64,000 nucleotides of DNA from Patescibacteria group bacterium. GTDB lineage: Bacteria > Patescibacteriota > Minisyncoccia > Phycocordibacterales > UBA918. The translations under genes were made by a program, and so were the position numbers. The stretch is from positions 4,739-68,738 of the forward strand of contig JAIELQ010000002.1 of the NCBI GenBank assembly GCA_019752815.1, given 5' to 3'. The notes below the pieces were generated by a model, which saw nothing but the letters and a program-made list of their open reading frames with translations, was not told where the DNA came from and ran no database searches. How positions within the stretch are numbered: the first letter of the stretch is position 1; each line of letters begins with the position of its first letter. Below are positions 21,885-42,536 of this stretch, piece after piece.

Positions 21885-22278
21885 ATAGTTTTATTAATTT
21901 AGAAATTATGGTATAAAAAGCATCCAACGGTCTTGGTTTCATTGTCCCCACCCTTGCAGGCCATGATTGTTGGAGCGCGATGGGGACTTGTTTCCATCGC
22001 GTTTTATTACACCAAATTTTATATATGTCACTATCTGTCGGGACTGCATGGACAGCTACCGACTCGGAGATCCCCTTGTAAAACCTAAGTATTTTCTACC
22101 GTTTAAAGCTACAATTTCTATCCCAATGCCCAAAAGACCTGGCAAAGACTACGGTTTCCTCCCAGGCAAGAATAAGGTGTGACGATATAAGCCTATGCAT
22201 CACTGCACGGGCTTTTTGCTGTATACCCATGAGAAAGTACTGCATTTGGTTCCGACACATTGGTAAATCGCAGCATTG

Positions 22279-22629
22279 CTATACCGATACAGTGGCGCGT
22301 GCCTGCTTCTGTCGTTCAGCAAAATAACGCTTCAGTCGCTGCTTAGGATAAAACTTCAGTACCTCATGTTCAGGAAGCATTACTTGATGTGGTCCCGCAA
22401 CACCAGGCCGACTAGGACGCTTCACTAAAGCAAAATCGCCCAAGTGAGGCATACGCACTACTTTGTGTCGTCGAAGCTCCTGAGCCACTACCTGCACCAT
22501 TGCGACGTAAATAATAAACACTTCATCACGACTTAGGTGATTAAGTTCTTTTGACAGCAACTGATAGAAGCGTTCATCTCGAAGCAGATCTTTGTTCGCC
22601 TCGTAGTTTATTGGTGGTTTCCATGACAT
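22279..22629 (-). CDS. HU/IHF-like DNA-binding protein (divergent).
   Basis: LGDFALVKRPSRPGVAGPHQ...VLKFYPKQRLK parallels the HU arm motif GFGTFEVRER-AR-GRNP...FK-GK-LK. Confidence 0.4.
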   Translation of the reverse strand: MSWKPPINYEANKDLLRDERFYQLLSKELNHLSRDEVFIIYVAMVQVVAQELRRHKVVRMPHLGDFALVKRPSRPGVAGPHQVMLPEHEVLKFYPKQRLKRYFAERQKQARATVSV

Positions 22630-22909
22630 TACAACACTATATCTCAGTACCTTAGTCTAATTTTTGGATAGAAATTTTTTTGGGATCAGCGTTTTTTTCA
22701 TACCAACTATTTCCAAACCACCCCGTCTATTAAAAATTGCGTGAGATACCGTTACTTACCCAGTGTCTTATGTAGCCAAACGTTTCCAAACCACGCCCCA
22801 TACCTACCATCAAGGTTTCAAGGTTCTTAGGACTCATCGTATGAATGAAGTATTTAAATAGCCACGCATCATTTGTATTGATTACCTCAGTACGGCCTAA
22901 CAAAAAAGT

Positions 22910-23230
22910 ATGAAGAATATAAACACAATCTTGAAGGAACGTAAGGTGGAGTCCACTTGGCGCGGGAGTAAGAAGACAGAAGATCAAATGCGGGAGCAGA
23001 TAAGAGCAAAATTTGGAGACACTGTGGCGAAAGAATATGACGCCAAAATGCACGTTATGAGTTTAAGGCAATGGTCTCGTTTCGGAATTAAAATTTTACC
23101 TGGCGAGTCAGCCCTGAAGACATATACCGTAATTGAGAACGATGAAGAGACTGGTGAAATGAAGCGAGTACGTAGATCAATACCGGTATTCCATTACTTA
23201 CAGACCGACTTAGCTACTACACATGAATAA
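22910..23230 (+). CDS. Hypothetical protein.
   Basis: An ORF whose stop overlaps the next start (ATGAATAA). It overlaps an antisense ORF. Confidence 0.3.
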   Translation: MKNINTILKERKVESTWRGSKKTEDQMREQIRAKFGDTVAKEYDAKMHVMSLRQWSRFGIKILPGESALKTYTVIENDEETGEMKRVRRSIPVFHYLQTDLATTHE

Positions 23231-23798
23231 TACTACTTATGCGCGTCGCACGACTCAAAGACGCACCTACCATACACCGACTCAGGCACAGCATCCCGCT
23301 CAGGAGGCCGTAGAATCGGTTATAAGGCAGTATGAAGGGGAGTTTCAGCTCAGAGCACAGTTTATCAAAGACGACGCTTCAATGACGGTATTTCGCCGCC
23401 CAAACAGTGTCGTAGTTGGTTATATCTGTAGGCTATTCGATGCAGAAAATCGTTGTCTCAGTGAAGGGAGAGGTGTCTCAATTATTAGTTTTCAAACAGG
23501 GAGGTATATAAACAAAGCAATTCTCTACGCACGAAACGCCAGTCTCATTGATTGTGTAAGTCGTGCTAGTAAACTCTCTACGGTGTTCGCGTCAGATGAG
23601 GAGGATGGGAGTGAAGTGAGTCAAAACAGCTATGCTTCAAATCCTCCCGAGCAACAACCGTCAGAAAAACAGGTAAAATATCTTACGTCGTTGATTGAGA
23701 CACTACCTTCTGATGAACAGTCCGATTTACTAACGCGCCTACCGCAAATGAGTCGCTATGATGTATCGCAACTGATTAACACATTAAAAGAGGCATAA
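23223..23798 (+). CDS. Hypothetical protein of 191 aa.
   Basis: Coupled to the upstream ORF and followed by a terminator hairpin. Confidence 0.4.
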   Translation: MNNTTYARRTTQRRTYHTPTQAQHPAQEAVESVIRQYEGEFQLRAQFIKDDASMTVFRRPNSVVVGYICRLFDAENRCLSEGRGVSIISFQTGRYINKAILYARNASLIDCVSRASKLSTVFASDEEDGSEVSQNSYASNPPEQQPSEKQVKYLTSLIETLPSDEQSDLLTRLPQMSRYDVSQLINTLKEA

Positions 23799-23802
23799 TA
23801 TA

Positions 23803-23840
23803 AAAAGCCGTGTTTCCTTTGGGATGCACGGCTTTCTTGT
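23803..23840 (+). terminator. Terminator hairpin.
   Basis: AAAAAGCCGTG...CACGGCTTTCTTGTT. Confidence 0.4.
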
Positions 23841-24250
23841 TGTTATTAGCCATAAATGAGCGTATTATTAGCTAACAATATAGTCACCTAAACCGTTTGA
23901 GCGGCATGGTGCGAATAAATAAGCCCCGTCAGAGCTAAAAAACCCATCTTGTGGGGTTTGCTCTGACGGGCCGTGTCTTGGAAACAGGACATGGTGGCTG
24001 AAAGGCCACACCCATGAGGTGGGTTTTTTGTATTTTAATTATATCTCTATGTTTAAAGGCTTCGCATTCTTGATTGTTGGTGGACTTGTCGGATGGTTAC
24101 TAGTAAATATTTTTCCAAATGATGAAATAACTCCCGTGGTTATAATTACCGCTACAACAATATTTGGATTTTATTTTATGTGGAAAGAAGCTGAGGAAGA
24201 TAACAAACGTGAATAAATCCAAATTATCAAATAATAGATGTTACTAGGTA

Positions 24251-24574
24251 ATGAACAAATTTTTCTACATCTCTACCATACTTGCATCACTGGTTACGAT
24301 TGTGACTTGGTTTTACCTTCAGAAATTAGAATCATCACCAGCTACAGTTACGACAGTTTGTCCGACTGAAAGTAATTTTGAGCAATTCTGGAATGACTGG
24401 TCCTATCAATATCTCACCGACAATCCAGACGTAGATATAGATACACAAATGGAAGACTGGAACACTCTTGTCGTTTTACATGATTGTGGTGAGGAATGGT
24501 TAAATCCGCTTGATGAAATGATTAAAGAGCATGGTGCTTCTGGTACGCCAGTGTATTGGTATGATACCCCTTGA
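24251..24574 (+). CDS. Hypothetical membrane-anchored protein.
   Basis: An N-terminal TM helix (ISTILASLVTIVTWFYL). Confidence 0.35.
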   Translation: MNKFFYISTILASLVTIVTWFYLQKLESSPATVTTVCPTESNFEQFWNDWSYQYLTDNPDVDIDTQMEDWNTLVVLHDCGEEWLNPLDEMIKEHGASGTPVYWYDTP

Positions 24575-24732
24575 AGAATTTAAAAAGCTGGTCCCTGATG
24601 GTGAAAAATTGACTGAGGATCAATTGATTATATTTCGTGACCTTATAGACGGACAGGCAGAGTTAATTCTTGACTCGTTTATGATTGAAAAGGCTAAAAA
24701 ACAACAAATGAATAATGATACAATATAGTGAC

Positions 24733-25134
24733 ATGAAAAAGTGGCTCACAAATAACAAAGTGGAGCTAGTGCTCGGCATTGGACTCACGCTCTTTTTGAT
24801 AAACCTATTTACTGAACAAGATAGTGACCTATACATCATTTCAATTCCATTAGTAGTAATCGGTGGACTGATGATGTACAAACGACACTTCCGTTCGAAT
24901 TCGTTCAATTCTTCATTCTATAGTTCGCTAGATGATATTGATGACGATGAGCTGTATGAAGATGCTAAGGAGGCGGTTCTAGAGGCTGGCAAAGCTTCTA
25001 CCTCATACATCCAACGCAAACTACGAGTTGGCTACTCCAGAGCCGCGCGCTTAATGGATATGCTAGAAGAGAAAGGTGTTATTGGTCCTGCCAACGGCGC
25101 AGAACCACGTGAAGTAAAAAACGTCCTTAAATAA
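24733..25134 (+). CDS. Small membrane protein with a C-terminal FtsK-gamma (winged-helix, KOPS-type) DNA-binding domain.
   Basis: Two N-terminal TM helices. The C-terminal sequence ([58 protein letters not shown]) matches the FtsK/SpoIIIE gamma domain consensus. Confidence 0.55.
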
Positions 25135-25182
25135 AGCTATACTTGTGTTTCGCTTTCAAGAAATTGGCGGTACACTTAAGAC

Positions 25183-27237
25183 GTGAGAAAAATTGATCTA
25201 CATATTCACACAATCGCGGCACCTGAGGGTAAGGACGTGGCTTTTGAGTTTGATATTTCAAAATTTAAAGAATATGTTGACACTGCAGGACTACACGCAG
25301 TTGCAGTCACTAATCATAACCTATTTAACCTAGAACAATTTAACGAGATTGCAGATGCGTTACAAAACGTAAAAGTGTTCCCAGGGATTGAAATCGACTA
25401 TGAAGACGGGCATATGTTGCTTATTGCTGAAAATGACGATCTTGATGATTTTAATACCAGATGTGCATTAGTCGAAGCTGAACACAGTGCAAATGGTAAA
25501 GTCAGACACGCTAAACTAATTGAAATTTTTGAGGACGTTAGCAAGTACTTACTTATTCCGCATCACGACAAAGATCCAAAAATTGGCAGGGTTCACATTG
25601 ATGTGTTGCGTGATGAAATCACCGCAGGTGAAGTGGGGAGTCAAAAAAGATTTCATCGATTGTTAAAGAAGCAAGATGAGCTAGTACCTGTTCTTTTCAG
25701 TGATATTCGGGTTAAATCATCACTTGATGTTTCTACCGTTCAAGGTAGACAAACTTACCTTAAAACAAACGCAGAGGAATTGAGTCTAAGTGCAATCAAG
25801 GCTGCCTTGCAAGATAAAGACAAAGTATTCCTTAGTCGCACTGAAAATCATGATTTTTTTGAAATATTTTCTGATGGTCAACAACTTTCTCATGGACTGA
25901 ACGTTATACTAGGCAACAGATCCTCCGGTAAAACACACTTTTTAAACAAGATTGTTGAAATGCTAGGCAGTGATGAAAAAGGTGTTAAATACATCAAACA
26001 GTTTGAACTGACAAAAATCGATGAGAAAGAATTTAATGATCTTCTTGAGAAGCAAGGAGGTTTTGTGCGGGAAGAATATCTTAGTGCTTTCAAGCCAGTT
26101 GTACAAAACGTTTTGGAGATTGACCGCTCACTAACCTTGCAGAAGATTGAGGAGTTTACAAATTCGCTTGTTTTGTATGCAAACAATGAGCAGTTACAGG
26201 ATGAATATTCGAGAGCAGTACTTTTTAATCAGAGAAAGCTTCCAGTCAAGCGAGATGGTGGTATCAATATTCTGATTGATGCTATCAAAGCATTGTTGGA
26301 CAGCGATAGTCACAAAGACGTGATCCTGAAGCACTTACCTGAAGCTTCACTGAAAGCAGTGTTAAACGAACTAGCGTTGCAGATGAAAATAATCACGCTA
26401 GATCGTTTAAAGCGGGAGTGGGTGAACGAATTGGTAAGTGATATTTCTGATGGTCTGCAGTCACGTAGCTCAAGACCACCTGTAAAGCATAATGATCTGA
26501 GCATTTATACGGTAAAGCTTGAGAAGGAGAAGATAAGACGTTTCAACGCTGTTGCAAAAGCAGTAAAAACTAATCAGACAATTAGAAAAGAGAAGAAAGG
26601 TAAATTCACTGTGGAGGCTTATGTTAGACCGTATAGTGGCACTCAGGAAGTAAAAAATGAAAGTAAAACCAATGACATCTCCTTCAAAGATGCTTACGAG
26701 CACTATAGTGACCCCTTTAGATATCTCAGCATCCTGAAGACGAAGAATTTAGATAAAGCCTCTCTCTACAAGTACTTCTGCAAAGTAAGATATCAAGTAC
26801 TAAACGAGTACCAAAAACAAGTGTCTGGTGGAGAAATGACCGAGTTTAACTTACTCCAAAGGCTACAGGATGCTTTTCAATATGAAATGCTTCTAGTAGA
26901 TGAGCCTGAGTCATCATTTGATAACGTCTTCTTGAAGGAAAACGTTAATAAGATCTTGAAAGATATCTCTAGGGAATTACCGGTAATTGTAGTAACACAC
27001 AACAACACAGTTGGTATGTTACTGAAACCTGACTACATAATCTACACACAGCGAGAGATAGAAGAAGGCGAGGATAAGTACTATGTCTATTCAGGTTCAC
27101 CTGGAGAAAAGACTTTTAGTACTGCAGACGGCAGTAGAATGGTCGATAGCCACGCGATTCTCCTTGAGGCACTAGAAGCAGGTGCAAATGCATACAATGA
27201 CAGAAAAAGGATGTATGACACTTATAAGAAAAACTAG
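25183..27237 (+). CDS. PHP-domain phosphoesterase fused to an ABC/SMC-like ATPase; it resembles the single-gene Ppl anti-phage system.
   Basis: An N-terminal PHP motif (DLHIHT...TNHN...IPHHD), Walker A (GNRSSGKTHF) and Walker B (MLLVDEPESSFD) separated by ~320 aa. Confidence 0.55.
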   Translation: MRKIDLHIHTIAAPEGKDVAFEFDISKFKEYVDTAGLHAVAVTNHNLFNLEQFNEIADALQNVKVFPGIEIDYEDGHMLLIAENDDLDDFNTRCALVEAEHSANGKVRHAKLIEIFEDVSKYLLIPHHDKDPKIGRVHIDVLRDEITAGEVGSQKRFHRLLKKQDELVPVLFSDIRVKSSLDVSTVQGRQTYLKTNAEELSLSAIKAALQDKDKVFLSRTENHDFFEIFSDGQQLSHGLNVILGNRSSGKTHFLNKIVEMLGSDEKGVKYIKQFELTKIDEKEFNDLLEKQGGFVREEYLSAFKPVVQNVLEIDRSLTLQKIEEFTNSLVLYANNEQLQDEYSRAVLFNQRKLPVKRDGGINILIDAIKALLDSDSHKDVILKHLPEASLKAVLNELALQMKIITLDRLKREWVNELVSDISDGLQSRSSRPPVKHNDLSIYTVKLEKEKIRRFNAVAKAVKTNQTIRKEKKGKFTVEAYVRPYSGTQEVKNESKTNDISFKDAYEHYSDPFRYLSILKTKNLDKASLYKYFCKVRYQVLNEYQKQVSGGEMTEFNLLQRLQDAFQYEMLLVDEPESSFDNVFLKENVNKILKDISRELPVIVVTHNNTVGMLLKPDYIIYTQREIEEGEDKYYVYSGSPGEKTFSTADGSRMVDSHAILLEALEAGANAYNDRKRMYDTYKKN

Positions 27238-27238
27238 T

Positions 27239-27619
27239 ATGAAATATTTGGAAATCAAAAATAGTAAAGGGTTATTCAATCGCGATGGTGTCATGATTGA
27301 GATTGATCAAATTACTGCTGAAGATCTACTTACCATTATTAATCATGCTCATGAAGAAGACTTTGAAATCGATGAGTACACAGAGGCGGCACTCCCCAAC
27401 AAGGCTCATCAGCTCATTTATCAAAATATCTATATTAAACTAACAGACTTTTTGAGTGACAAGAATCAATTTAATCAGCAAGTTGATAAGTTGTACGAAG
27501 ACGCTATTGGCAAATATAATGCCGACATTCCTGCAGAAGCAGAGCCTGAAGTCGACAATATTAACGACTTTAAAGAAGCTGATGCTGAGGAAATTAACCC
27601 CGAGGACATACCATTTTAA
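27239..27619 (+). CDS. Hypothetical acidic protein of ~126 aa.
   Basis: Immediately downstream of the PHP-ATPase gene, with overlapping/adjacent starts. Asp/Glu-rich. Confidence 0.35.
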   Translation: MKYLEIKNSKGLFNRDGVMIEIDQITAEDLLTIINHAHEEDFEIDEYTEAALPNKAHQLIYQNIYIKLTDFLSDKNQFNQQVDKLYEDAIGKYNADIPAEAEPEVDNINDFKEADAEEINPEDIPF

Positions 27620-27728: not shown

Positions 27729-30584
27729 ATGGGTAAGATTACAGCGTATCACGGCAAGTATTTTGCATATGAACTTACTCGAGAATACTCGTCGGATGAT
27801 TTGCAAAAATTCACCCGTACTCTTTTGAATGCCAAAGTGGATTTAAATCCCCATCAGGTGGAGGCTGCACTGTTCGCATTTCGATCTCCGTTTTCGAAGG
27901 GTGCCATCCTCGCAGACGAAGTTGGTCTCGGGAAGACTATCGAAGCTGGTATTTTATTGTCTCAAAAATGGGCAGAGAAAAAGCGACACATCCTCCTTGT
28001 TATGCCCTCAAGCCTACGGAAACAGTGGCAACAAGAACTTGCAGATAAATTTTACTTACCATCGTTTATTTTGGAAGCGGGCACTTTTAATTCAATACGC
28101 AAAGCTGGTTCAAGCAATCCTTTTGATACAACTGAAAGAATTGTAATTTGTTCATACCACTTCGCAAAAGCAAAAGCAGAGTACATCCGTAAGGTAGATT
28201 GGGATATTGCGGTCCTTGATGAAGCGCATCGCTTGCGTAACGTATACAAAAAGGATAATAAAATTGCTAATGAGATCAAGGATGCACTAGCTGGAGTACC
28301 TAAAGTCTTACTCACGGCGACCCCACTTCAAAATTCATTGCTAGAGCTCTATGGGCTAGTCAGCTTAATCGATGAGCAAATATTTGGAGATATTGAGAGT
28401 TTCCGGTCCCAGTTTAGTCGCGCTGATGAAGATGGCTTACTTGATCTTCGTTCACGCATTCGTCCTGTCTGTCAGCGAACATTACGCAAACAGGTGCCAG
28501 ATATTCCTTACACAAACCGTATCGCAATCACTCAAGAGTTCGTTCCAACTGAGAAAGAACATCAGTTATACGAACACGTATCAAATTACCTGCAAAAAGG
28601 TGACCTGTATGCGTTACCGAAGTCCCAGCGCCATTTGATGACACTAATTCTACGTAAGTTATTAGCATCTTCATCTTTTGCTATTTCGAGCACTCTAGAT
28701 AAACTTGCTACTAAGCTTGAGCAGTATCTAGCCAGCGGTACACTTTTGGGTGATTTTGCTGATGTCCTCGATGAAGATGAGCGAGAGTTATATAATGAAC
28801 ACCAAGATGAGCACGCTGACGAGGAAGATGTTTCTAATGCTCCAACGTATACAGCTGAGCAGAAACAAGCAATAGAAAAGGAGATTCAAGAATTACGGCA
28901 CTTCCATAAGCTTGCAGAGGAGATTGAGCATAACGCTAAAGGAGATGCTCTTATTGAGGGATTACGACGTGGCTTTGAAGCGCTTCGGGCAAATTCTGCA
29001 CCAGATAAAGCAGTTATTTTTACCGAATCAACCCGCACCCAAAACTATTTGTTCGAGGTGCTAAATAGTATTCCAGATTATACCGGTAAGGTTTTGTTGT
29101 TTAACGGAAGCAATAATGACCAGCTTTCTAAACGTCTTTATGATGCATACCAAAAAAAGTATGCTGGCACTGAGCGTATCAGTGGTTCCCGGAGTGCTGA
29201 CACTCGTGCTGCAATAGTAGATGCTTTCCGCGATACAGGAATGATACTTATTGCTACAGAAGCGGCTGCTGAGGGTATAAACCTACAATTCTGTAGTTTG
29301 CTTGTGAATTATGACCTGCCATGGAATCCTCAACGCATTGAGCAACGAATTGGACGATGTCACCGCTACGGACAAAAATTTGACGTTGTCGTCATTAACT
29401 TTCTCAATAAAAAGAACGCTGCCGACCAACGAGTGTACGAGCTACTCAATGAGAAGTTTAAACTCTTTAATGGTGTATTTGGAGCAAGTGATGAAGTGCT
29501 TGGCGCCATTCAGTCAGGTGTTGATTTTGAAAAGCGTATCGTTGAAATCTACCAGACTTGCCGTAGTGAAGTGGAGATCAAGACAGCTTTTGATGCTCTT
29601 CGGGCAGAACTCGATGAACAGCTTACTAGTAAACTAACTGAAGCAAATAAAAAGCTATTCGAGCACTTTGACGAAGAAGTGCGTGAAAAACTTAAAGTTC
29701 AGGACGCGAATACAAAACAAGCACTCGCTACTCAGGAGCGGTATTTGTGGCAACTGGCACAACTGTATTTAAGTAACAGTGCTGTTTTTGAAGAAGGTGA
29801 ATATCGCCTTACACTCCACACTGCACCACGTGCCGATGTGCCTACCGGGGTGTATCATATGGATTACAGGAAGAACGAACCGCATCACTTCCGAATCGGC
29901 TGTCCATTAGCTGAATGGCTCCTTGAAACCGCTAAAAGCGCCGACACTCCGAACACTGTTTTAAAATTTGCCTACACAGGGTCAAATACTAAGATTTCTA
30001 CTCTAGAGCCACTCGTAGGCAAGAAAGGGGTATTGTCGCTGAATCTACTCACTGTAGCTGGTGCTGACAATCAAGAGCTCCTTGTATTTGCAGGTCAGAC
30101 AGCGAGTGGTCATGAACTTGATGCTGATCAATGCTATCGACTGTTTTCATTACCAGCTACCACTACAGGTGCTGAAGCTGTAGCTAATGAACAGTTGCAA
30201 AAGATTTTTGAAAAGAAGCAGCATGTGATCATGACAGATATTGCTGAACGAAACAGTAAATATTTTAATGAAGAGTCAATGAAGCTTGAAAAGTGGGCAG
30301 ACGATAAAAAAGCCTCCCTTGAGAAGGAGATGAAAGATACCAAGATTCGTATGCGAGAACTCAATCGCGAAGCCAGGCAAGAAAAAGACATGCAAAAGCA
30401 ACTTGAGATTCAAAAAAGACTCAAAGAAACAGAGCGAAAACTACGAATACTACGCCAAAACATTTTTCAAGCCGAAGATGAAATTGAGACTGAACGCGAG
30501 CGTCTCATTGCTACACTAGAAGAAAAGCTTAAGCAGAGCACAGCTGTAACGCCAATTTTTAGCATTGAGTGGGAACTCGTTTAA
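27729..30584 (+). CDS. SNF2-family helicase.
   Basis: Helicase motif I (ADEVGLGKT), DEAH box (VLDEAHRLRN) and SNF2 C-terminal helicase motifs (LIATEAAAEGINLQ...QRIGRCHRYGQ). The C-terminus has a ~300-aa coiled-coil-rich extension. Confidence 0.8.
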   Translation: MGKITAYHGKYFAYELTREYSSDDLQKFTRTLLNAKVDLNPHQVEAALFAFRSPFSKGAILADEVGLGKTIEAGILLSQKWAEKKRHILLVMPSSLRKQWQQELADKFYLPSFILEAGTFNSIRKAGSSNPFDTTERIVICSYHFAKAKAEYIRKVDWDIAVLDEAHRLRNVYKKDNKIANEIKDALAGVPKVLLTATPLQNSLLELYGLVSLIDEQIFGDIESFRSQFSRADEDGLLDLRSRIRPVCQRTLRKQVPDIPYTNRIAITQEFVPTEKEHQLYEHVSNYLQKGDLYALPKSQRHLMTLILRKLLASSSFAISSTLDKLATKLEQYLASGTLLGDFADVLDEDERELYNEHQDEHADEEDVSNAPTYTAEQKQAIEKEIQELRHFHKLAEEIEHNAKGDALIEGLRRGFEALRANSAPDKAVIFTESTRTQNYLFEVLNSIPDYTGKVLLFNGSNNDQLSKRLYDAYQKKYAGTERISGSRSADTRAAIVDAFRDTGMILIATEAAAEGINLQFCSLLVNYDLPWNPQRIEQRIGRCHRYGQKFDVVVINFLNKKNAADQRVYELLNEKFKLFNGVFGASDEVLGAIQSGVDFEKRIVEIYQTCRSEVEIKTAFDALRAELDEQLTSKLTEANKKLFEHFDEEVREKLKVQDANTKQALATQERYLWQLAQLYLSNSAVFEEGEYRLTLHTAPRADVPTGVYHMDYRKNEPHHFRIGCPLAEWLLETAKSADTPNTVLKFAYTGSNTKISTLEPLVGKKGVLSLNLLTVAGADNQELLVFAGQTASGHELDADQCYRLFSLPATTTGAEAVANEQLQKIFEKKQHVIMTDIAERNSKYFNEESMKLEKWADDKKASLEKEMKDTKIRMRELNREARQEKDMQKQLEIQKRLKETERKLRILRQNIFQAEDEIETERERLIATLEEKLKQSTAVTPIFSIEWELV

Positions 30585-33648: not shown

Positions 33649-33651
33649 GAT

Positions 33652-36600
33652 ATGGCAAAGAAAGCAGCACCAAAAAAATCACTGCGTTTTGATCAACGAC
33701 TCGTGTTACAACGATGGTTTTTGTCGCTGTTTGATGTCGCAAAATTTGAAGATTTAGCAAAAGATCTCAAAGACCCACGCTACGAAGGTTACACCGAAGA
33801 TAATCAGTCTCACTTTTACCATCATCTGACAGCTCGAACTGCTCCGTTTAGTGGTATCAGTAAGGAACAGTTATTACGGTATGACGAAAATATCTTCTCA
33901 CATACTCTGCGCATCAGTGAACGTCGCCCGAGGCGAGTAACATGGAAATATTTCCAGTATCTTTCACTTTTAGCTACCGAAGTATATTTAGATCGTTGGT
34001 TCACAAATAAAGGAGAATTATGTGCTGACCTTAATGCCTATCTAACGACTTTCAATGATGAGCTACCTGTAAGTGATCAGGTAGAGCCATTCACTGTAGC
34101 TGGTCTATCAAAATTAGCGTTTTGGTCTGCAACAGGTAGTGGGAAGACACTGCTAATGCATGTGCACCTTTTACAGTATCTCCACTATGCGAAAAAACAT
34201 CGAGTAGAAAAAGACATCAATAAAGTCATCCTTATCACACCAAATGAAGGTTTGTCTTCCCAGCACTTAGACGAACTCAGCCTTTCAAGCATCCCGGCTC
34301 GGATTTTTACTAAAGGTAACGAGACAACGTCGCTATTCGCAGGCTTCGGAAATGAAAAACCTGTTGAAATCATCGAATATACAAAACTTAAAGAAGAGAG
34401 TAAGGAGAAAACGGTAGCACTTGAAGCCTTTGAGCATAACAATCTCGTATTTATTGACGAAGGACACAAAGGGGCAGGCGGCGATGTGATTAAACGTTAT
34501 CGCGATACACTATCCGAAGACGGTTTTGCATTTGAGTATTCAGCCACATTCGGTCAGTCGATTAAGGCTGCATCTACAGGTAAGCGAAAGCTATTAGAGC
34601 AGGAGTATGCCAAAGCCATTCTTTTTGATTACTCATACCGTTACTTCTATCGAGATGGATATGGTAAAGACTATAAAATTTTGAACCTGCCGGACGACCA
34701 AGCGTTCGATGAAGCAATCAGACGTTTGTATCTCACAGCTGGACTTTTAACATTCTACCAACAGACAAGGCTCTACACCGATGACACAAAGGCATGGAAA
34801 GCGTTCTTACTGGAGCGACCGTTGTGGGTCTTTGTTGGTGGCAAAGTAACTGCAGTTCGTAAGGAAGGTGGGCGTGAAGTATCTGATGTTGTTGAAATTA
34901 TTTTATTCATTAATGACTTTTTAGAGAATAAAAACGAAAGCAAGCGACTACTGAAAGGACTTATGGACGGCAAGACCGGACTTACAGACACAGCAGGTCG
35001 TGACGTATTTGCGTCATCTTTTGGCTACATACAGACTCTGGGACTATCTACCGAAGATTTGTACAACAACATTATAGAGTCCGTATTTCGTTCACGTGGT
35101 GGTCAACTACATCTTGATAATCTAAAAGGTGTCGATGGTGAGATTGGTGTACGCGTAGGGACGGGCGAGTACTTCGGTGTTATTAACGTTGGTGACGACA
35201 AGGAGCTTTTAAAGCTTTGTGAGACAAGTGGTATTAATACTGCCGAAGTTGAGTTCAGATCATCGCTCTTTAGAAAGATTAATGACGATGACTCAACAGT
35301 TAATCTTTTGATTGGTTCAAAAAAGTTTACTGAAGGGTGGAGTAGTTGGCGTGTAAGTTTGATGGGTCTGATGCATATTGGTCGCAGTGAAGGCTCAGAA
35401 ATCATCCAGCTGTTTGGTCGTGGAGTGCGTTTAAAGGGCAAAAACTGGTCTCTGAAGCGCAGTAAAGCAATTGAGGGTAGTAATGCGCCAAAACACATTC
35501 AGGTGCTCGAAACGCTCAATATTTTTGGTGTTCGTGCTGACTATATGCGCACCTTCAAGGAATATCTCGAGGAGGAAGGATTGCCGACTACAGATACAAT
35601 CGAAGTTGTATTACCTACACTTCGTACATTTGACCCAAATCGCAAACTTAAAGTACTACGCATTCGTGATGGAGTAAGTTTCAAGCGAGATGGTGGCAAA
35701 GTAGACTTCTCCTTGACGGTCGATAAACGCATTGCTCCAGTTGAACTCGATTGCTATCCGAAGCTTCAAGCCTTGGTTGGTGGTGTATCGCAAGGAATTA
35801 CTACTGATCCAGATGTGGGTATTTTTTCACCTGTTCACTTAGCATTCTTCAACTACACTGAGCTCTACTTCGAACTGCAAAAGTATAAAAACGAAAAGAA
35901 TTGGTACAACGTAAATATTACTGCGGAAAGTATCCAGAACCTACTGCTCGATACATCATGGTATCGCTTATACATCCCACACCAGCAATTGACCATGGGG
36001 GACTATTCACGTGTACGTTACTGGCAAGAAATTGCTCTATCATTACTCAAGAAGTACTTAGTGGCATTGTACAACTATCGTAAAGCAGAATGGGAAGAAC
36101 CATATCTTGAGTATCAGGACATGCGTTCTGATGATCCTAATTTTGTTGATGAATACCGAGTGAATGTACCCGATGATGCAGACCACAACGTAGCACTAGA
36201 TAAGATACGCTTGCTCGAGAAACTACTACTCCAACTGAAGAGAGAAAATAAAAACGAAGTGCCAGACGTACAATCGTTTGCTGCAGGTAGTTTCGTACCA
36301 TTTACGTTTGATCGTCACCTCTACCACCCGCTCATTCATATCGACGAAAGTATTGGTATGCAGATAACGGTAAAACCAGTTCACTTAAACGAAGGCGAGC
36401 ATCGTTTTGTTTTAGATTTGCAGCAGTTCTACAACGAGCAACCTGACGCGTTTGCTGGTAAGGAACTTTTTTTGCTTCGCAATAAGTCAAAAGAAGGAAT
36501 TGGGTTTTTTGAAGCGGGTAACTTCTATCCCGACTTCATCATGTGGCTTGTTGACGAGATGACCCAACACGTAGTATTTATTGATCCAAAAGGTATTCGT

Positions 36601-36840
36601 AATTTGGATATATCTGATGATCTTAAGCTGAACTTTCATGCCAAACTAAAGGAAAAAGAAGCCCGACTGGGTGAGCCAAATATCAAATTACACTCGTATA
36701 TCATTTCACGCACTCCATTTGATCTACTCATCAATTACAAATCGGACCAATCTTCACTTGAAGCAAAAAATATTTTATTCCAGCACCAAGGCAGTGATTA
36801 CGTACGCAAGATGTTAAGCAAGGTGCTTATAGAGGAGTAG
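33652..36840 (+). CDS. Res-like DEAH helicase with a C-terminal PD-(D/E)xK-type nuclease motif (a Type III Res-like subunit).
   Basis: Walker A (WSATGSGKT) and motif II (FIDEGHK) in the N-terminal third. Near the C-terminus a YPDF...VVFIDPKG (PD...DxK) motif. The start lies 4 nt after the methyltransferase stop. Confidence 0.6.
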   Translation: MAKKAAPKKSLRFDQRLVLQRWFLSLFDVAKFEDLAKDLKDPRYEGYTEDNQSHFYHHLTARTAPFSGISKEQLLRYDENIFSHTLRISERRPRRVTWKYFQYLSLLATEVYLDRWFTNKGELCADLNAYLTTFNDELPVSDQVEPFTVAGLSKLAFWSATGSGKTLLMHVHLLQYLHYAKKHRVEKDINKVILITPNEGLSSQHLDELSLSSIPARIFTKGNETTSLFAGFGNEKPVEIIEYTKLKEESKEKTVALEAFEHNNLVFIDEGHKGAGGDVIKRYRDTLSEDGFAFEYSATFGQSIKAASTGKRKLLEQEYAKAILFDYSYRYFYRDGYGKDYKILNLPDDQAFDEAIRRLYLTAGLLTFYQQTRLYTDDTKAWKAFLLERPLWVFVGGKVTAVRKEGGREVSDVVEIILFINDFLENKNESKRLLKGLMDGKTGLTDTAGRDVFASSFGYIQTLGLSTEDLYNNIIESVFRSRGGQLHLDNLKGVDGEIGVRVGTGEYFGVINVGDDKELLKLCETSGINTAEVEFRSSLFRKINDDDSTVNLLIGSKKFTEGWSSWRVSLMGLMHIGRSEGSEIIQLFGRGVRLKGKNWSLKRSKAIEGSNAPKHIQVLETLNIFGVRADYMRTFKEYLEEEGLPTTDTIEVVLPTLRTFDPNRKLKVLRIRDGVSFKRDGGKVDFSLTVDKRIAPVELDCYPKLQALVGGVSQGITTDPDVGIFSPVHLAFFNYTELYFELQKYKNEKNWYNVNITAESIQNLLLDTSWYRLYIPHQQLTMGDYSRVRYWQEIALSLLKKYLVALYNYRKAEWEEPYLEYQDMRSDDPNFVDEYRVNVPDDADHNVALDKIRLLEKLLLQLKRENKNEVPDVQSFAAGSFVPFTFDRHLYHPLIHIDESIGMQITVKPVHLNEGEHRFVLDLQQFYNEQPDAFAGKELFLLRNKSKEGIGFFEAGNFYPDFIMWLVDEMTQHVVFIDPKGIRNLDISDDLKLNFHAKLKEKEARLGEPNIKLHSYIISRTPFDLLINYKSDQSSLEAKNILFQHQGSDYVRKMLSKVLIEE

Positions 36841-36850: not shown

Positions 36851-37420
36851 ATGCCTAAATATGTTTTAACACCCGAATACCTTTCTGAGTTAGAACATTT
36901 TTTGGATGAGTTAACGTCACAAGAACAAAAGACAATCATCACGGTATATTTACGGCTGTGTTCAGATTACATCAATAACACTCTATCTGGTAAGACCGAA
37001 ACATACATACTGCCTAAAAGTACTGCTTTTATTATTCGTGCAAAATATGGCGTTCGGGTTCATTTGTTTACGCGGATATTTGATGACTCACCTCATTACA
37101 ACAAAGCACGAAGCCTAGGTATTTTAAGTTTTGATGCCGGTTTATGGTCTGCGCTGCATGATAAGCACCCTGGTCAAACTTATACATTCAGTGCTGGGGA
37201 TGGAGCAAAAACACAACATGGTGAAATATTTTTTAGAACAAAGTCCACTAAGCAGAAACACAGGTTACACCCGGATGAACTTCAAAAATTAAAAAATACC
37301 TTACCGAAATCTAACAGTAAGGTGAAAAACACAAAATCAGCTGGGAAATATAAAACGTATAAATTCATCCCAAAAGATTCGCCTGAGCCCGTGTTCTACA
37401 GAAAGAAGCAAATTTTATGA
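36851..37420 (+). CDS. Hypothetical protein of 189 aa.
   Basis: The stop overlaps the next start (ATGA). No recognisable motifs. Confidence 0.4.
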   Translation: MPKYVLTPEYLSELEHFLDELTSQEQKTIITVYLRLCSDYINNTLSGKTETYILPKSTAFIIRAKYGVRVHLFTRIFDDSPHYNKARSLGILSFDAGLWSALHDKHPGQTYTFSAGDGAKTQHGEIFFRTKSTKQKHRLHPDELQKLKNTLPKSNSKVKNTKSAGKYKTYKFIPKDSPEPVFYRKKQIL

Positions 37421-38148
37421 AAAAGAGACTGTCACAATCGACAATAGAAAAACTTAATTATTACGTATACGCTCTTATCGATCCTCGGTCAGACAAGGTG
37501 TTTTATGTAGGTAAAGGAAAGGGGAACCGCATTTATGCCCACGTAGAAGCTTCAGAGTCAGTGGATACGAATGAAGTGATGAAGATAGCAAAAATACGGG
37601 AAATTCGGGCGGCAAAAAAAGATGTAAAACATGTTGTTATTCGTCACGGACTGACAGAAGACCAAGCTTTTGCTGTTGAAGCTGCCGTGATTGACTATGT
37701 TGAGTCAGTTCAGAAGCAACAACTTACAAACCTCATGTCAGGACACTACACGGCTGAAGCTGGAATTCGCACCATTGAAGATATCGAAATCCAGTATGAG
37801 GCGAAGCCAGCTATCTTTAGTGAACCAATAATGCTTATTCGTGTGAATAGGCATTATAAACACGGCATCACAGATAAAGAGCTTTATAACGTTACCCGGC
37901 AGCATTGGCGCGTTGGTCCGCGTGCTTTCCAAATTAAGTACGCGTGCGCTGTTTACCTTGGTATTATTCGTGAAGTGTATGAAATCAAATCATGGACACC
38001 TACGGAAGTAATTAATGGACATCAGCGTCACGGGTTTAATGGACGTATAGCATCAAAAGAAGTCAGGGATAAGTATCGATACACGTCAGTAAAGCACTTG
38101 TTTAAACAAGGGCACCAAAGCTCGATCGTCTATGCAGAGCCAAACTAA
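37417..38148 (+). CDS. GIY-YIG nuclease domain protein.
   Basis: The N-terminal sequence YYVYALIDPRSDKVFYVGKGKGNRIYAHV matches the GIY-YIG signature (GIY...YVG...R...H). Confidence 0.55.
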   Translation: MKKRLSQSTIEKLNYYVYALIDPRSDKVFYVGKGKGNRIYAHVEASESVDTNEVMKIAKIREIRAAKKDVKHVVIRHGLTEDQAFAVEAAVIDYVESVQKQQLTNLMSGHYTAEAGIRTIEDIEIQYEAKPAIFSEPIMLIRVNRHYKHGITDKELYNVTRQHWRVGPRAFQIKYACAVYLGIIREVYEIKSWTPTEVINGHQRHGFNGRIASKEVRDKYRYTSVKHLFKQGHQSSIVYAEPN

Positions 38149-38484: not shown

Positions 38485-38601
38485 TATTTTATCGCATCGT
38501 GATAATGGTGTAGATGCGATAAACGATAAGGATTTTCGCTACAGCTACAATGAGACCAAGGTGGTAAATAAAAACGCATACGAGCGATTTTTACCCTCAA
38601 T

Positions 38602-38841
38602 TTATGTCGTCCCCGGGGCTGTTTTGGAAATGTCTCGTTTCGCAATTGAGACTAAGTAACGCAACACCGCCGGTCGCTCATTTTTGGCGTAGTCATCCTT
38701 ATCAACCAGGCGATGAAAATGACGACGAACACTAGCCTCAGTCAGGTTGGTATTTCGGATACTCTCAGCAAAGACGGTGTAGGTACTATAAAACGGGTGC
38801 TTGGTAGCTATCTTCTCATAACGGGATTTAATGTCGTACAT
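38602..38841 (-). CDS. Small putative HTH DNA-binding protein of 79 aa.
   Basis: NLTEASVRRHFHRLV looks like an HTH recognition helix. It is divergent from the Rep-like gene across the iteron region. Confidence 0.3.
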   Translation of the reverse strand: MYDIKSRYEKIATKHPFYSTYTVFAESIRNTNLTEASVRRHFHRLVDKDDYAKNERPAVLRYLVSIAKRDISKTAPGTT

Positions 38842-39026
38842 GCATGATTCGTAGCGGGATTATGTGCTACGAGCCAGATTATCTCAGAGTACTAATTTAC
38901 CCTCAGGCATTCATCGCAGTTACCTTTACTGCTACAAAACTGACTCTGTAGCAACATCCCCGTGTGAGCGCCGGGTTGAGCCCCCAAGAGGCGACCGGCC
39001 GAACAAAGGGGATGCTGCAGTGCCTG

Positions 39027-39075
39027 CTATTAAAAAACGCTGCTATTAAACTTATCTATTAAACTTATTTATTAG
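39027..39075. repeat. Iteron-like tandem direct repeats.
   Basis: CTATTAAACTTAT is repeated perfectly twice (39043-39055 and 39056-39068) with partial copies on each side. Nearby inverted repeats of GAGTA/TACTC lie at 39097-39135. Confidence 0.5.
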
Positions 39076-39172
39076 TATGGAATACGCGACCGTGAGTATT
39101 CTCGTTACTCATGCTTGATCAATCTCGCTACTCATTTTTGGTACTATGGCAAACTAGTTAGCATTACTATTA

Positions 39173-39805
39173 ATGTATAAAGATATGGTTAAATTAATGC
39201 CAGATGAATTTGCTCCAAAAGATTACTTTGCAGATAAAAATGTAGCGGATTACTGGACGATTCCTAAAGGTGTAGCAAAGTGTGAGGCACTATCTTGGGG
39301 TTCAAAAATGCTATATGGAGTAATTTTTGGACTAGCGTACGATAAGAAACAAGCATTTGCTTCATACAAAACGTTGCGTAAGCATTTAGGTAATCCAAGC
39401 CAGGCAACACTACAGCGCTGGCTGAAGGAATTGTTTGATGCGAGATTAATTCGTGCCATTCAGCGCGGACGAGGTGCTACAAACCTATACCGTTTACTAA
39501 AATCACCACTGGTTGGCAACATGACCGACGAGGAATATGCCTTAGGTCCGCAGGTGGTGTATGCAGGGGCTTTAACTGATGAGCCTAAGCTGGTCGACAT
39601 TCAAGAAGCTATCGATCTGTTTGAGATGGAGTATTTCGAGTGGGGAATGAAGAGTACTCTGCCGAGTGACTTTAAGCTACCAAAACCTTACTTCAAAGGA
39701 AGACGAGAAAAAGTAAACACGACTCGCTCATACTGGTTCTGGTATGTTGCAGATAAGTACCTATTCGATTCAGGACTCGCTCTAAGCACCGAGTTTGAGG
39801 AATAA
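39173..39805 (+). CDS. Winged-HTH protein, a putative replication initiator (Rep-like) or element regulator.
   Basis: The central region (YKTLRKHLGNPSQATLQRWLKELFDARLIRAIQRGRGATNLY) looks like a winged HTH. It lies immediately downstream of the iterons. Confidence 0.4.
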   Translation: MYKDMVKLMPDEFAPKDYFADKNVADYWTIPKGVAKCEALSWGSKMLYGVIFGLAYDKKQAFASYKTLRKHLGNPSQATLQRWLKELFDARLIRAIQRGRGATNLYRLLKSPLVGNMTDEEYALGPQVVYAGALTDEPKLVDIQEAIDLFEMEYFEWGMKSTLPSDFKLPKPYFKGRREKVNTTRSYWFWYVADKYLFDSGLALSTEFEE

Positions 39806-39815
39806 TTTGATCTTG

Positions 39816-39844
39816 TTGACAGTAGAAACATTGCCGTTATAAAA
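39816..39844 (+). promoter_or_regulatory. Near-consensus sigma70 promoter driving a long leader.
   Basis: TTGACA-N16/17-TATAAA. No ORF start is found for about 450 nt downstream. Confidence 0.4.
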
Positions 39845-40292
39845 TGCTCGCACGTTAGGTAGTCGCACGAAATGAGACGACCGAGCGTTAGTTCCCCAAT
39901 AGTATGATTCGTAGTTAACCCACGCGGCCTACGAACGGGTAGATGCAGACCGTAACAAAGCATCCGTACGCTAGGTACGTAGCCTCTCTGTCGGTTCGAA
40001 TCCTTTCGCGACAGGGGCGCATGCCCATCATAGCAATGAGGTATGTATCAGTTACGGTTGTCTGTGTTTACTAAGGATTCTGGTGTTAAAGATAAATGCA
40101 TGAAGTCAAGTTCGTGCCGTTATCTTTTGGACTAGATGAAACAATGGAGGGCGTATACCATGCAGTATTCGTGGTAGCCCATTCCCTCCGACGAGAAGAG
40201 ACGTGTCAAATAATTAACAACACCAGCATAGAGCGTGTTTTTAACGCAACACGTAATCCGTGCGTTTCTATTGCTGGTTAAAACTACTCACA

Positions 40293-40634
40293 ATGAACAA
40301 TGTAAAATTTGCTGCTATTTACGTAGCAACACCAGACGGTGACGAGTACGACTTAAACGATCTTGTTGCGATGAACTTATCAAATCTGTTAGCCGACAGC
40401 GGGAAACCTTATTCGAGTCAGGTAATTCTATACATCGATAACGGCTATTATCCATATGGTGATAACCGGCCAGCCCTTAAGGCACTCACTGACGATATTA
40501 ATAGCGGTTTAATCACCGAAGTGTACATGCAGGGTAGGAGCATGCTTCCAGATACCATCGACAACATGTACGGTTTTAGCGCATTGGTAAGGGAAAATGA
40601 CATAAAAATTAGCTTCCTGAATTATGGCGACTAA
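40293..40634 (+). CDS. Degenerate serine-recombinase (resolvase) catalytic-domain protein; predicted inactive.
   Basis: KFAAIYVATPDGDE stands in place of the resolvase aIYaRVSTxxQ motif, so the nucleophile Ser and the Arg are missing. The later segment VYMQGRSMLPDTIDNMYGFSALVRENDIKISFLN parallels the resolvase DRLgRs...GV.f motif. Confidence 0.4.
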   Translation: MNNVKFAAIYVATPDGDEYDLNDLVAMNLSNLLADSGKPYSSQVILYIDNGYYPYGDNRPALKALTDDINSGLITEVYMQGRSMLPDTIDNMYGFSALVRENDIKISFLNYGD

Positions 40635-40806
40635 ATCACGTACTCGGCTCCAAACCTATCTCATGAAGCTGAATCACGTCAGCGACAAGCCCTTAGTAGT
40701 GAAGTACATACGCGATGAAGATGCTTCACTTAAATACCGTCGTGACAATGCTTTGCGCCGCGTTATCGAAATTACTATTGACTACATCAACAAAAACAAA
40801 CTATGA
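40624..40806 (+). CDS. Small basic hypothetical protein of 60 aa; a possible recombination directionality factor.
   Basis: It overlaps both neighbouring genes and lies immediately upstream of the integrase. No homology recognised. Confidence 0.25.
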   Translation: MATKSRTRLQTYLMKLNHVSDKPLVVKYIRDEDASLKYRRDNALRRVIEITIDYINKNKL

Positions 40807-42536
40807 ACAACCTCATTTCGTTAGCTATAGTGCTCGTCTGCATATACCTAAGAACTTCAACTGATAGACAGGAGCGTGATGAGACGATTAAAACTCAACG
40901 CGCAACAATAAAAAGATTCCTTGACTCAAAATATGGTCCGGGTAACTACGAGATTGTTGCTGAGTATGCTGATGATGGATACACCGGTACTAATATGAAT
41001 AGACCGATGTTGCAGCAAATGCTTCAAGACTCTCAAACCGATAAGTGGGACATCCTGGTTACGTTTGATTCAAGCCGTCTATCACGTGACTTCAGCGACG
41101 GTATCACAATCGTAGACAATATAATGCAGGCAGGAAAACAAATTCTTTACACTGACGGAAGCTCACCAAACGGGCGACCTAAACTGTTGAATCGTGTAAT
41201 GGCTGCAGTTGACGATGATGACCGCGAACGAACGGTGCGAAAGTTTCTTGAAGGAAAGAAACATCGTGCTTCACAAGGTCGAATCATGAATAGTGTTAGC
41301 GCATACGGATATACCCTTATTCCAAAGGTGGGATGGCAGGGAAGAGCTGACTATAAAGATACTGAACTAGTTATCAATCCCGATGAGGCTGTAGTTGTGA
41401 AGTTAATTTTTCATCTTGTTGGCAACGAACGCTACTCAGCAAGGCAGGTAATAAAAAAATTGATGGAGCTGGGAATAAAACCTCGCAAGAGTACGCGTGG
41501 CATTTGGGCTCATAGCAGTATCTACAATATGCTCAATAACGAAGTGTATATCGGTAATCTACGCTACGCTTCTTCTATTGCAGTAGAACCCAAGCGACAA
41601 ATTAAACGGCTCCGAAAGAAAAATATTGTAAAAACTAGTCGGATAATAAAGCCACGCAGTGAATGGCAAATCATGAGCGTACCTGCAATTCTTGAGGGAC
41701 AGGAAGGTGTCTTACTCTTTCAACGTGCCCAGGAGCAACTGAGGAGAAATAGACGAGAGGCAAAAGGGAACCGTGATCCCCACAGTTACTTACTCTCAGG
41801 TCGAATTGAATGTAGTTGTGGTTATGCTCGATGTGGCGAAGGTGCAAAAGCCTCGGGCAATCTTTACTACCGTTGCTCAGACAGGGTATCGAACTTTCCT
41901 TTAAGTACCTGTGATGTTGGTGGTGTTCGAGCTATTGATTCTGATGAAGCGGTCTGGCGCTATCTGAGTGCGTTAGTCAGCACCCCCACAGTTTTTCAAG
42001 AAGCTGTTGATGAGTACATGTCTGGATCCATGAGCAAACCAGTTAATGAAGCAGAGCTGGCTATAAGAGCGCTTCAAAAAGAAGAAGAATCACTCATCAA
42101 TGCAAGGACTCGCCTAGAAACTGCACTTCAACGCGGAACACTCGATTACGAACGCTTTGGAGAACTTAATAAAGAAAATAAAGAGAGATTGTCTGAGGTT
42201 AAGGTAAAACTCAATCAGTTGCTTGCTACACAAACTTCGGAAGGTCCGAGCATTGTTGATCCGTATTTAGCGCAGAAAATTGTATTCTACGCACAATCAG
42301 CACTTAGAGACATGAGCTTTGAAGATAAACGTCAATTTGTACTCGACACAGTAACGAAAGTCGTTGCTGTGCCAGGTGAATTGCGTGTAGAAGGAGCACT
42401 ACCCTTAGTTGAGACCTGGTCATACGACGCCATTATCTTGCCTTTACGTCAAAATAAAGCTAAGATTCCGTCACCTTTTTATTATGTCCAGTTCAAAACT
42501 ATCAGTGGGAATTGTTGGACTGCCAAACGTTGGTAA
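40803..42536 (+). CDS. Large serine recombinase (integrase).
   Basis: The catalytic motif VCIYLRTSTDRQ and the motif DSSRLSRD. A recombinase domain, a zinc-ribbon (CSCGYARCG...YYRCSD) and a C-terminal coiled coil give a length of 577 aa. Confidence 0.85.
   Translation: MNNLISLAIVLVCIYLRTSTDRQERDETIKTQRATIKRFLDSKYGPGNYEIVAEYADDGYTGTNMNRPMLQQMLQDSQTDKWDILVTFDSSRLSRDFSDGITIVDNIMQAGKQILYTDGSSPNGRPKLLNRVMAAVDDDDRERTVRKFLEGKKHRASQGRIMNSVSAYGYTLIPKVGWQGRADYKDTELVINPDEAVVVKLIFHLVGNERYSARQVIKKLMELGIKPRKSTRGIWAHSSIYNMLNNEVYIGNLRYASSIAVEPKRQIKRLRKKNIVKTSRIIKPRSEWQIMSVPAILEGQEGVLLFQRAQEQLRRNRREAKGNRDPHSYLLSGRIECSCGYARCGEGAKASGNLYYRCSDRVSNFPLSTCDVGGVRAIDSDEAVWRYLSALVSTPTVFQEAVDEYMSGSMSKPVNEAELAIRALQKEEESLINARTRLETALQRGTLDYERFGELNKENKERLSEVKVKLNQLLATQTSEGPSIVDPYLAQKIVFYAQSALRDMSFEDKRQFVLDTVTKVVAVPGELRVEGALPLVETWSYDAIILPLRQNKAKIPSPFYYVQFKTISGNCWTAKRW

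Follow-up and report, generated by a model that had tools for sequence, protein, structure and literature searches.

We analyzed a 64,000-nucleotide (nt) stretch of the genome of a Patescibacteria group bacterium (contig JAIELQ010000002.1, positions 4,739 to 68,738; hereafter, the window) and conclude, with a probability of about 0.85, that its segment 22042-42509 is an integrated mobile element. According to this interpretation, the element entered the 5' coding end of ychF by exchange between its own attachment site (attP) and the chromosomal one (attB), supplied ychF with a new start that repairs it, and in the same step split the gene for its own large serine integrase. The boundaries of the insertion, the core of the exchange, the repair of ychF, the recent transfer of the element, and the splitting of the integrase gene together with its conservation are directly evident from the comparisons described below.

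The host is a Patescibacterium, as the YchF protein of the window is 93% identical, from residue 6 onward, to that of a Candidatus Kaiserbacteria metagenome-assembled genome (MAG; L001), with Parcubacteria/Paceibacteria MAGs providing the next-closest relatives. Five related Patescibacteria genomes (L001-L004 and L006), all of them species-level representatives, have sppA followed directly by ychF and hence define the empty site; none of the genes located at 22-42.5 kb of the window is present at this locus in these genomes. The window carries 20,468 bp of extra DNA (22042-42509, counting one GG) between sppA (21042-21884; Peptidase_S49 by Pfam), on the left flank, and ychF. An earlier reading of the DNA sequence (here, the original prediction) had proposed an integrated element of about 20 kb between these two genes, at 21900-42536. 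The insertion was borne out, but its ends are 22042 and 42509, so that the left end had been set ~140 nt too far to the left. The native sppA-ychF spacer with its promoter region (21885-22024) is still in place and, together with the first 17 nt of ychF, reaches 22041. This displaced native 5' end of ychF (22025-22041, plus strand) comprises the ATG and five codons (MSLSV-G), and its last two bases, 22040-22041, are the crossover GG. It aligns with the L001 empty site ATGTCACTTTCGGTCGGAATTGTCGG and now opens an 18-codon dead-end open reading frame (ORF).

The junctions define the core of the exchange. The left junction runs from the native spacer through the ATG at 22025 into ATGTCACTATCTGTC-GG-GACTGCATGG, the right junction reads ...AAAACTATCAGTG-GG-AATTGTTGGACTGCC, and the empty site of L001 reads ATGTCACTTTCGGTC-GG-AATTGTCGGACTCCC. 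With the register of attB set by the reading frame of ychF, the in-register overlap of the left and right attachment sites (attL and attR) is GG only (22040-22041 and 42508-42509). A shared core of 2 bp is the expectation for a serine recombinase. Excision would restore a site reading ATGTCACTATCTGTC-GG-AATTGTTGG. Comparison with related genomes thus defined both the empty site and the att core. The compositional discontinuity that had been anticipated was also found: the GC content is 41.5% in the island versus 43.7% in the flanks, and the tetranucleotide distance to the flanks is maximal at 24-34 kb, over the defense genes.

At the right end, ychF is restored (42484-43590, plus strand; 368 amino acids [aa], PF01926 and PF06071) with an N terminus that comes from the element. 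The right arm of the element (the P arm of attP) provides ATG TCC AGT TCA AAA CTA TCA GTG G, a new start plus eight codons, and the hybrid protein begins MSSSKLSVG-IVGLPNVGKS, compared with the native MSLSVG-IVGLPNVGKS, so that the native L-S-V-G is recreated. The exchange point is the GG of the Gly6 codon of ychF, just ahead of the P-loop. Integration into the 5' coding end with a replacement N terminus, as originally predicted, is therefore visible at both ends, as the displaced start on the left and the in-frame ATG at 42484 on the right. The proposed overlap of the recombinase ORF with ychF is likewise real, but it measures 53 nt and not 52 nt, as ychF starts at 42484 and not at 42485. Gene callers start ychF 28 to 46 codons late, with loss of the P-loop, in the relatives L081 (11757-12779), L082 (11820-12788), L083, and L084 (322 to 340 aa), because the integrase ORF overlaps the true ychF start.

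The new start lies in an ultraconserved block (42416-42509, plus strand), the P arm of attP, which contains promoter-like hexamers, the ATG at 42484, and the codons MSSSKLSV and ends in the GG at 42508-42509. Over ~90 nt of this block (42416-42506), the window and L081 are ~99% identical, whereas the integrase genes are 55 to 75% identical elsewhere. Being much longer than an integrase half-site, the block probably doubles as the promoter and leader of ychF, which would then be transcribed from the element. It could alternatively be the trace of a recent conversion.

The integrated form of the large serine recombinase (40803-42536, plus strand; PF00239, PF07508, and PF13408) comprises 569 element-encoded codons followed by 8 out-of-frame ychF codons (NCWTAKRW). 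Its catalytic domain (PF00239, E=7e-21, residues 13-160) contains the Ser nucleophile motif YLRTSTDRQ, which is invariant among the aligned homologues, and is followed on the C-terminal side by the recombinase domain PF07508 (E=1.5e-13) and the zinc ribbon PF13408 (E=5e-6). An AlphaFold2 model of the homologue P0008 has long helices at residues 386-467, which may correspond to a coiled-coil insertion in the zinc-ribbon domain. The window integrase would be the enzyme that recombined attP with an attB located across the first codons of ychF.

Comparison with the European Nucleotide Archive (ENA) contigs L082-L084 revealed 97 to 100% nucleotide identity over window positions 40210-42509, falling to ~70% from 42510, within ychF. 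Such a near-identical module beside so divergent a ychF indicates that transfer was recent. Upstream of the shared module, the replication-initiator-like protein is 34% identical in amino acid sequence and the cargo is entirely different. Integrases 98, 89, 72, 67, and 39% identical to that of the window all end in ...YYVQFKTIS plus a short out-of-frame tail from the ychF P-loop, and the 98% and 67% members of this set adjoin ychF on its upstream side. These two have in common a right-end module of an HTH_36 protein, a small resolvase-like ORF, and a 60-aa ORF; the cargo beside them differs and includes type III-like restriction-modification, UvrD, an MmeI-like methylase, and GmrSD.

The arrangement of the junctions further revealed that attP lies inside the integrase gene, a consequence of the integration that the original prediction had missed. 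The integrated copy loses the last 46 residues of the protein and gains the 8 out-of-frame ychF codons, and the missing 46 codons are found 20 kb away, at the left end of the element. There, the split-off 3' end (22042-22182, plus strand; 46 codons plus stop) begins with the P' arm of attP and continues into the conserved tail LPFKATISIPMPKRPGKDYGFLPGKNKV. Joining integrase codon 569 across the GG to 22042 gives an open frame with 46 further codons, DCMDSYRLGDPLVKPKYFLPFKATISIPMPKRPGKDYGFLPGKNKV*, so that excision would rejoin the gene in frame. The predicted circle, with 42509 joined to 22042, reads ...ACTATCAGTG-GG-GACTGCATGG and contains a 615-codon integrase ORF.

The tail is recognizable independently of the junction. 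Its motif, IPFEF..LPPPLRRGVDYGFLPG, is conserved in uninterrupted relatives, and a hidden Markov model of 38 uninterrupted tails matched the six-frame translation of the window once only, at 22096-22176, in the predicted frame (E=2e-7); BLASTP of the tail to P0008 gave E=2e-7. Seeding a search with P0008 yielded ~2000 relatives (E<=1e-30), which came from Patescibacteria, Bradyrhizobium, and Rhodoplanes; the family is large and found mostly in Patescibacteria. Both C-terminal forms are represented in a set of 135 relatives: the frame-shifted ending GIVGLPN[VA]GKSTLF, as in the integrated copy, occurs in at least 48, and at least 51 are uninterrupted, with the long conserved tail RHG..ATRH..IPFEFTIKLPPPLRRGVDYGFLPGSN or a variant ending ..PPR.ER.I..R..GRI. 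This second tail variant has the common IPFEF.I.LP.P, followed by ..PR.ER.I..R...GRI.RSAPP in place of LRRGVDYGFLPG, and is carried by P0038, P0040, P0048, P0052, P0053, P0061, P0062, P0067, and others. Another relative, P0056, is cut at the same point with a tail that is not derived from ychF. We also considered whether the long tail could be host encoded, with the element integrated elsewhere; this was ruled out by the location of the tail inside the element at left junctions and by the mobile-element genes on both sides of the integrase in contigs with the long-tail form (L117 and L118). Other uninterrupted members include Ga0206818_1119 and JAANMY010002343.1. Long-tail integrases flanked by mobile-element and defense genes were also observed within complete Bradyrhizobium chromosomes (L087, at ~4.44 Mb of Bradyrhizobium diazoefficiens AP014685.1; P0037, P0050, and P0067).

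When metagenomes were scanned with the tail alignment, 35 loci were recovered. At 9 of these, the tail was contiguous with a full or contig-truncated integrase gene, and at ~26, no integrase body lay upstream. Nearly all of the 26 inspected orphan loci have a ychF-type start (ATG TCA CTN TCN ATN GG; MSLSIG) ~55 to 65 nt before the IPF motif, and the host gene that normally precedes ychF is present at 8 of them. These features identify the orphan tails as left junctions like that of the window. Every frame was open from the crossover in the 19 orphan tails analyzed. The codon-position entropy of 20 tails, including that of the window, was 0.65/0.50/1.55 bits, third positions being 2.5 to 3 times more variable. 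This pattern indicates purifying selection, with the split-off piece kept as coding sequence, and the only sense that we could find in this is that the elements regularly pass through a whole-gene form. Mini or decayed elements were also seen, in which 1.6 to 3.7 kb separate the split-off tail from ychF (L104 at 5119-7992, L089, L101, and L121); L104 keeps only approximately residues 309-540 of the integrase.

Alternatively, neither the read-through into ychF nor the left-end tail might matter to integrase function; the tail would then be conserved as a small protein in its own right or as a left-end element acting as DNA or RNA, and the truncated integrase would be the normal enzyme. Several observations are compatible with this: the integrated form still has its catalytic, recombinase, and zinc-ribbon domains and the predicted coiled coil, tail residues 565-585 and the linker 529-545 are predicted to be disordered, and an ORF in the tail frame (21967-22182) exists in the integrated state. 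However, the tail is contiguous with the integrase ORF in the 51 or more uninterrupted relatives, the open frames upstream of orphan tails vary from 14 to 59 codons and have no conserved start, the frame across the reconstituted attP is intact in the window, and the selection pattern is that of coding sequence. We therefore regard a tail without integrase function as improbable, although it is the alternative that fares best.

A tail that belongs to the integrase is also suggested by the AlphaFold2 model of P0008 (mean predicted local distance difference test score [pLDDT], 70). In this model, the disordered linker 529-545 is the attP-encoded part, a beta strand at 550-558 (IPFDFVVKL; pLDDT, ~84) comes after the last hairpin (508-525) in sequence, and the end is disordered. 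The tail thus probably completes the C-terminal domain. If so, only the circular form would make full-length integrase, and the tail, with its predicted strand and the motif PPPLRRGVDYGFLPG, might be needed for integration or for protein stability. Integration would then alter the activity of the enzyme and bias its direction, much as happens with IntP/IntX of myxophage Mx8 and with the archaeal SSV-type integrases. By this analogy, the tail swap could act as a built-in directionality or commitment switch, a proposal that we make tentatively and that we consider somewhat more likely to be wrong than right. The wider combination, of a large, mainly patescibacterial integrase family that has attP in its own gene, uses the tail swap as a switch, and carries LOOT (see below) as a dedicated RNA, is marginally more doubtful as a whole.

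A number of observations weigh against the integration and excision scheme proposed here. Neither an excised circle nor a same-strain empty site was found; the predicted attP pattern had 0 matches in viral contigs, and a degenerate pattern for attB, attP, attL, and attR had 0 matches in metagenome contigs, both of which are weak evidence. No uninterrupted integrase of the window's own subfamily (at least 39% identity) was recovered, and the tail matches those of relatives that are ~33% identical. An intact gene is no proof of a free circle, since complete Bradyrhizobium chromosomes carry the uninterrupted form as well. The promoter-like sites near 42409-42436 are no commoner than in shuffled sequence, and the window yielded no gene for a recombination directionality factor, a relaxase, or type IV secretion. 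Finally, L082, whose module is otherwise ~99% identical to that of the window, differs from it at positions -7, -4, and -1 to the left of the GG.

These three differences, which characterize the module of L082-L084, bear on the exact position of the crossover. They fall at ~11700-11720 of L082, opposite window positions 42501-42507, and each occupies a third codon position of ychF, a pattern that would be expected had these 7 nt come from the host in that lineage. Accordingly, a crossover displaced 9 nt to the left, onto the CT at 42498-42499 and 22031-22032, has to be weighed, with ATC.GT.GG at each junction coming from the other partner. Nothing separates the window from L082 as far as ...AAAACT, beyond which the two show third-position differences of the kind seen in the following ychF codons, and the integrase frame is kept whether the crossover is placed at GG or at CT. 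On the other side, in 8 of 8 uninterrupted attP sites, the dyad maximum falls on the GG, with the repeats ATGTCGAGTT at -24 to -15 and AACTCGACAT at +15 to +24; in the reconstituted attP of the window itself, the GG center is best by one match only (9 versus 8 for three other centers). The left repeat contains the new ychF ATG and explains the conserved peptide [HY]VEFKT, and the right repeat explains the conserved ATRH. Moreover, the P arm ...ACTATCAGT is common to the window, P0002, P0003, and P0004/L081, in different hosts, and the integrated and uninterrupted proteins part only after the R/G codon that contains the GG. An exchange at the CT is therefore unlikely, more so than a tail without integrase function, and we retain the exchange at the GG.

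With the ends of the element fixed, its nature was examined through the remaining genes. Temperate phages commonly encode a large serine integrase, an HU-like protein, and a replication-initiator-like protein, and the characterized integrases closest to that of the window come from phages (SPbeta and Paenibacillus phages, ~25% identity), which would fit a prophage or phage satellite. However, scans of ten non-defense ORFs against PHROGs, and Pfam scans, returned no virion structural or packaging gene and no capsid, terminase, portal, tail, or lysis match, and no relative of the integrase with more than 30% identity was found in IMG/VR. Relatives of the element carry a type IV coupling protein, ArdC, zeta toxin, or Replic_Relax. 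A phage origin is thus highly improbable. Pfam scans of the window also returned no relaxase, coupling protein, or type IV secretion gene, so that the element does not classify as an integrative and conjugative element. We infer that it is a nonphage element of an integrative plasmid-like or mobilizable type. The notion that the region is ancestral and was deleted in relatives, with compact gene packing accounting for the overlap of integrase and ychF, draws on the restriction of the comparison to species-level representatives and on the lack of a same-species empty site, but it is very improbable, since each end has its own copy of the ychF start, the two junctions have a core of exactly 2 bp in common, the integrase module is near-identical in L082-L084 while the ychF next to it is only ~70% identical, none of 80 species-representative ychF loci has an integrase relative upstream, and composition shifts across the island, all of which point to insertion.

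The gene classes listed for the interior in the original prediction are all present according to the ORF map and Pfam, one label excepted (see the defense genes below). From the left, the element encodes an HU-like DNA-binding protein (22279-22629, minus strand; PF00216, E=3e-8) and two plus-strand ORFs without a Pfam family (22910-23230 and 23223-23798), the first of which recurs in other elements of the family, with tblastn matches close to the left junctions of L094 and L110, on the element side. Next is a small membrane protein (24715-25134, plus strand) with an FtsK gamma winged-helix DNA-binding domain (PF09397, E=5e-28) and a hydrophobic N-terminal half; this protein and the HU-like protein agree with the earlier assignments. 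At the right end, a winged-helix protein (39173-39805, plus strand) resembles the N terminus of replication initiators (HTH_36, PF13730; PHROG 270/428, replication initiation, E=3.5e-10), and homologues occur in L081-L083, L094, and L096. This confirms the helix-turn-helix part of a predicted iteron/helix-turn-helix module, but the supposed iterons amount to 2 to 2.5 copies of short direct repeats at 39024-39138, plus strand (by TRF, a 13-nt unit × 2.5 and a 23-nt unit × 2). A small conserved minus-strand ORF lies beside it (38602-38841). The region of this ORF is 81% identical in nucleotide sequence to L082 (7824-8117, minus strand) and encodes a near-identical peptide, though the adjacent replication-initiator-like genes are only 34% identical in amino acid sequence.

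Two further plus-strand ORFs precede the integrase, namely, a resolvase-like remnant (40260-40634) and a 60-aa ORF that overlaps the integrase start (40624-40806), both 98 to 100% identical in L082-L084. The remnant had been called a degenerate resolvase; its own match to Resolvase has an E value of just 0.17, and the ORF at the same position in L081 matches at E=8e-10. L081, L085, and L088 likewise have small ORFs ahead of the integrase.

Between the left-end ORFs and the FtsK gamma protein lies a LOOT RNA (23885-24009, plus strand; Rfam RF03000, 70.4 bits versus a gathering threshold of 46.4, model positions 1-121). A promoter-like site (23840-23868) and a terminator-like hairpin (24010-24024) flank it, and promoter scans in the window, including the LOOT region, were not informative beyond chance. 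Measured inward from the left junction, LOOT lies at 1.6 to 2.5 kb in three independent elements inserted in ychF, that of the window and those of L094 (3871-3992) and L115 (7630-7744). LOOT is a recurrent component of these elements and may be a dedicated RNA of this ychF-targeting family.

The defense genes occupy the middle of the element, all on the plus strand, and would be cargo that benefits the host. The first is a PDC-M49 candidate defense pair (A, 25183-27237, 684 aa, 757.7 bits to PDC-M49A in PADLOC; B, ~27239-27619, 100.2 bits to PDC-M49B). Gene A had been labeled Ppl-like, a label that we abandoned because no Ppl model matched at E<=0.001. The SNF2/methyltransferase/Res module and the GIY-YIG nuclease were both recovered by Pfam and PADLOC: a DrmD-like SNF2 helicase (27729-30584; DrmD, 696.9 bits), a type III-like N6_N4 methyltransferase (30565-33648; MTase_III, 721.2 bits), a type III-like ResIII restriction subunit (33652-36840; REase_III, 712.5 bits), and, after a 189-aa ORF with no assigned family that begins at 36851, the PD-T4-3 GIY-YIG nuclease (37417-38148; 160 bits, PF22945). 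DISARM was considered for the module and rejected, as no DrmB or DrmC was present among the ten proteins scanned and the sole DrmA match (119 bits) was a secondary one to the same DrmD-like helicase. A GmrSD-type (type IV restriction) gene with DUF4357 lies outside the island, at the left edge of the window (692-3226, plus strand), in a region of low GC content (37 to 39%) and raised tetranucleotide distance.

Our literature searches found neither a serine recombinase gene interrupted by its own attP nor large serine recombinases (LSRs) in Patescibacteria. Relative to the literature searched, the carrier family, its target, and the split integrase have not been described. The mobile elements of bacteria of the candidate phyla radiation are poorly known, and the present analysis defines one widespread family of them with base-pair-exact ends, a conserved target (codon 6 of ychF, beside the universally conserved P-loop DNA), and exchangeable defense cargo. 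Integrases mined from integrated copies of such elements carry the wrong C terminus, with 46 residues lost and junk added, which matters for surveys of recombinases for genome engineering, and the truncation of the adjacent ychF to 322 to 340 aa is a systematic annotation artifact at such junctions. LOOT, formerly an orphan metagenomic motif, gains a genomic home.

The window integrase resembles characterized LSRs (SPbeta SprA/YokA, A118, and phiC31) in its domain order of Resolvase, Recombinase, and zinc ribbon (the last with a long helical insertion in the model of P0008), in its 2-bp nonpalindromic core, in an attP that is an imperfect inverted repeat of ~50 bp, and in the position of its gene at one end of the element. 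It differs from them in sequence (~25% identity), in having attP within its coding sequence, such that integration removes a conserved 46-residue tail, and in a P arm that doubles, in another frame, as the start of the target gene. Integration that restores its target is classical: gene-restoring islands in tRNA and transfer-messenger RNA (tmRNA) genes split their target, bring a replacement end, and leave the displaced fragment at the other junction (PMC4383910). The window element does the same, except that the part replaced is not the 3' end of a tRNA gene but the start codon and 5' coding end, probably along with the promoter. ychF has been reported as the integration site of Bacillota pipolins that encode large serine recombinases (bioRxiv 10.1101/2024.05.22.595293); unlike these, the window element resides in a Patescibacterium and has no piPolB. 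As in defense islands on integrative elements, three or four systems are clustered, and cargo is swapped among elements with the same integrase module.

The closest parallels to the split gene are found among tyrosine recombinases. The archaeal SSV-type ("suicidal") integrases have the recombination site in their own gene, which is split on integration and restored on excision (PMC8371274), and Mx8 IntP/IntX is described, in a later citing work, as having attP in the recombinase gene with a change at the C terminus (Tojo et al. 1996, as cited in PMC4383910). The window shares with both types a site inside the recombinase gene, a missing piece at the opposite end of the element, and restoration by excision. 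Both types belong to the tyrosine recombinases and have tRNA genes as targets, whereas the window enzyme is a serine recombinase, and we therefore regard it as an analogue and not a member. A 2021 review held that self-disrupting recombinases are known only in archaea (PMC8371274); the present case indicates that a serine integrase gene can also be split by its own attachment site, an arrangement that the review reserves for archaeal tyrosine integrases. If the tail swap does act as a switch, it would be the bacterial serine-recombinase counterpart of the archaeal suicidal integrases. The SSV type separates the catalytic domain, whereas the window integrase loses its C-terminal tail only, and in this respect it is closer to Mx8.

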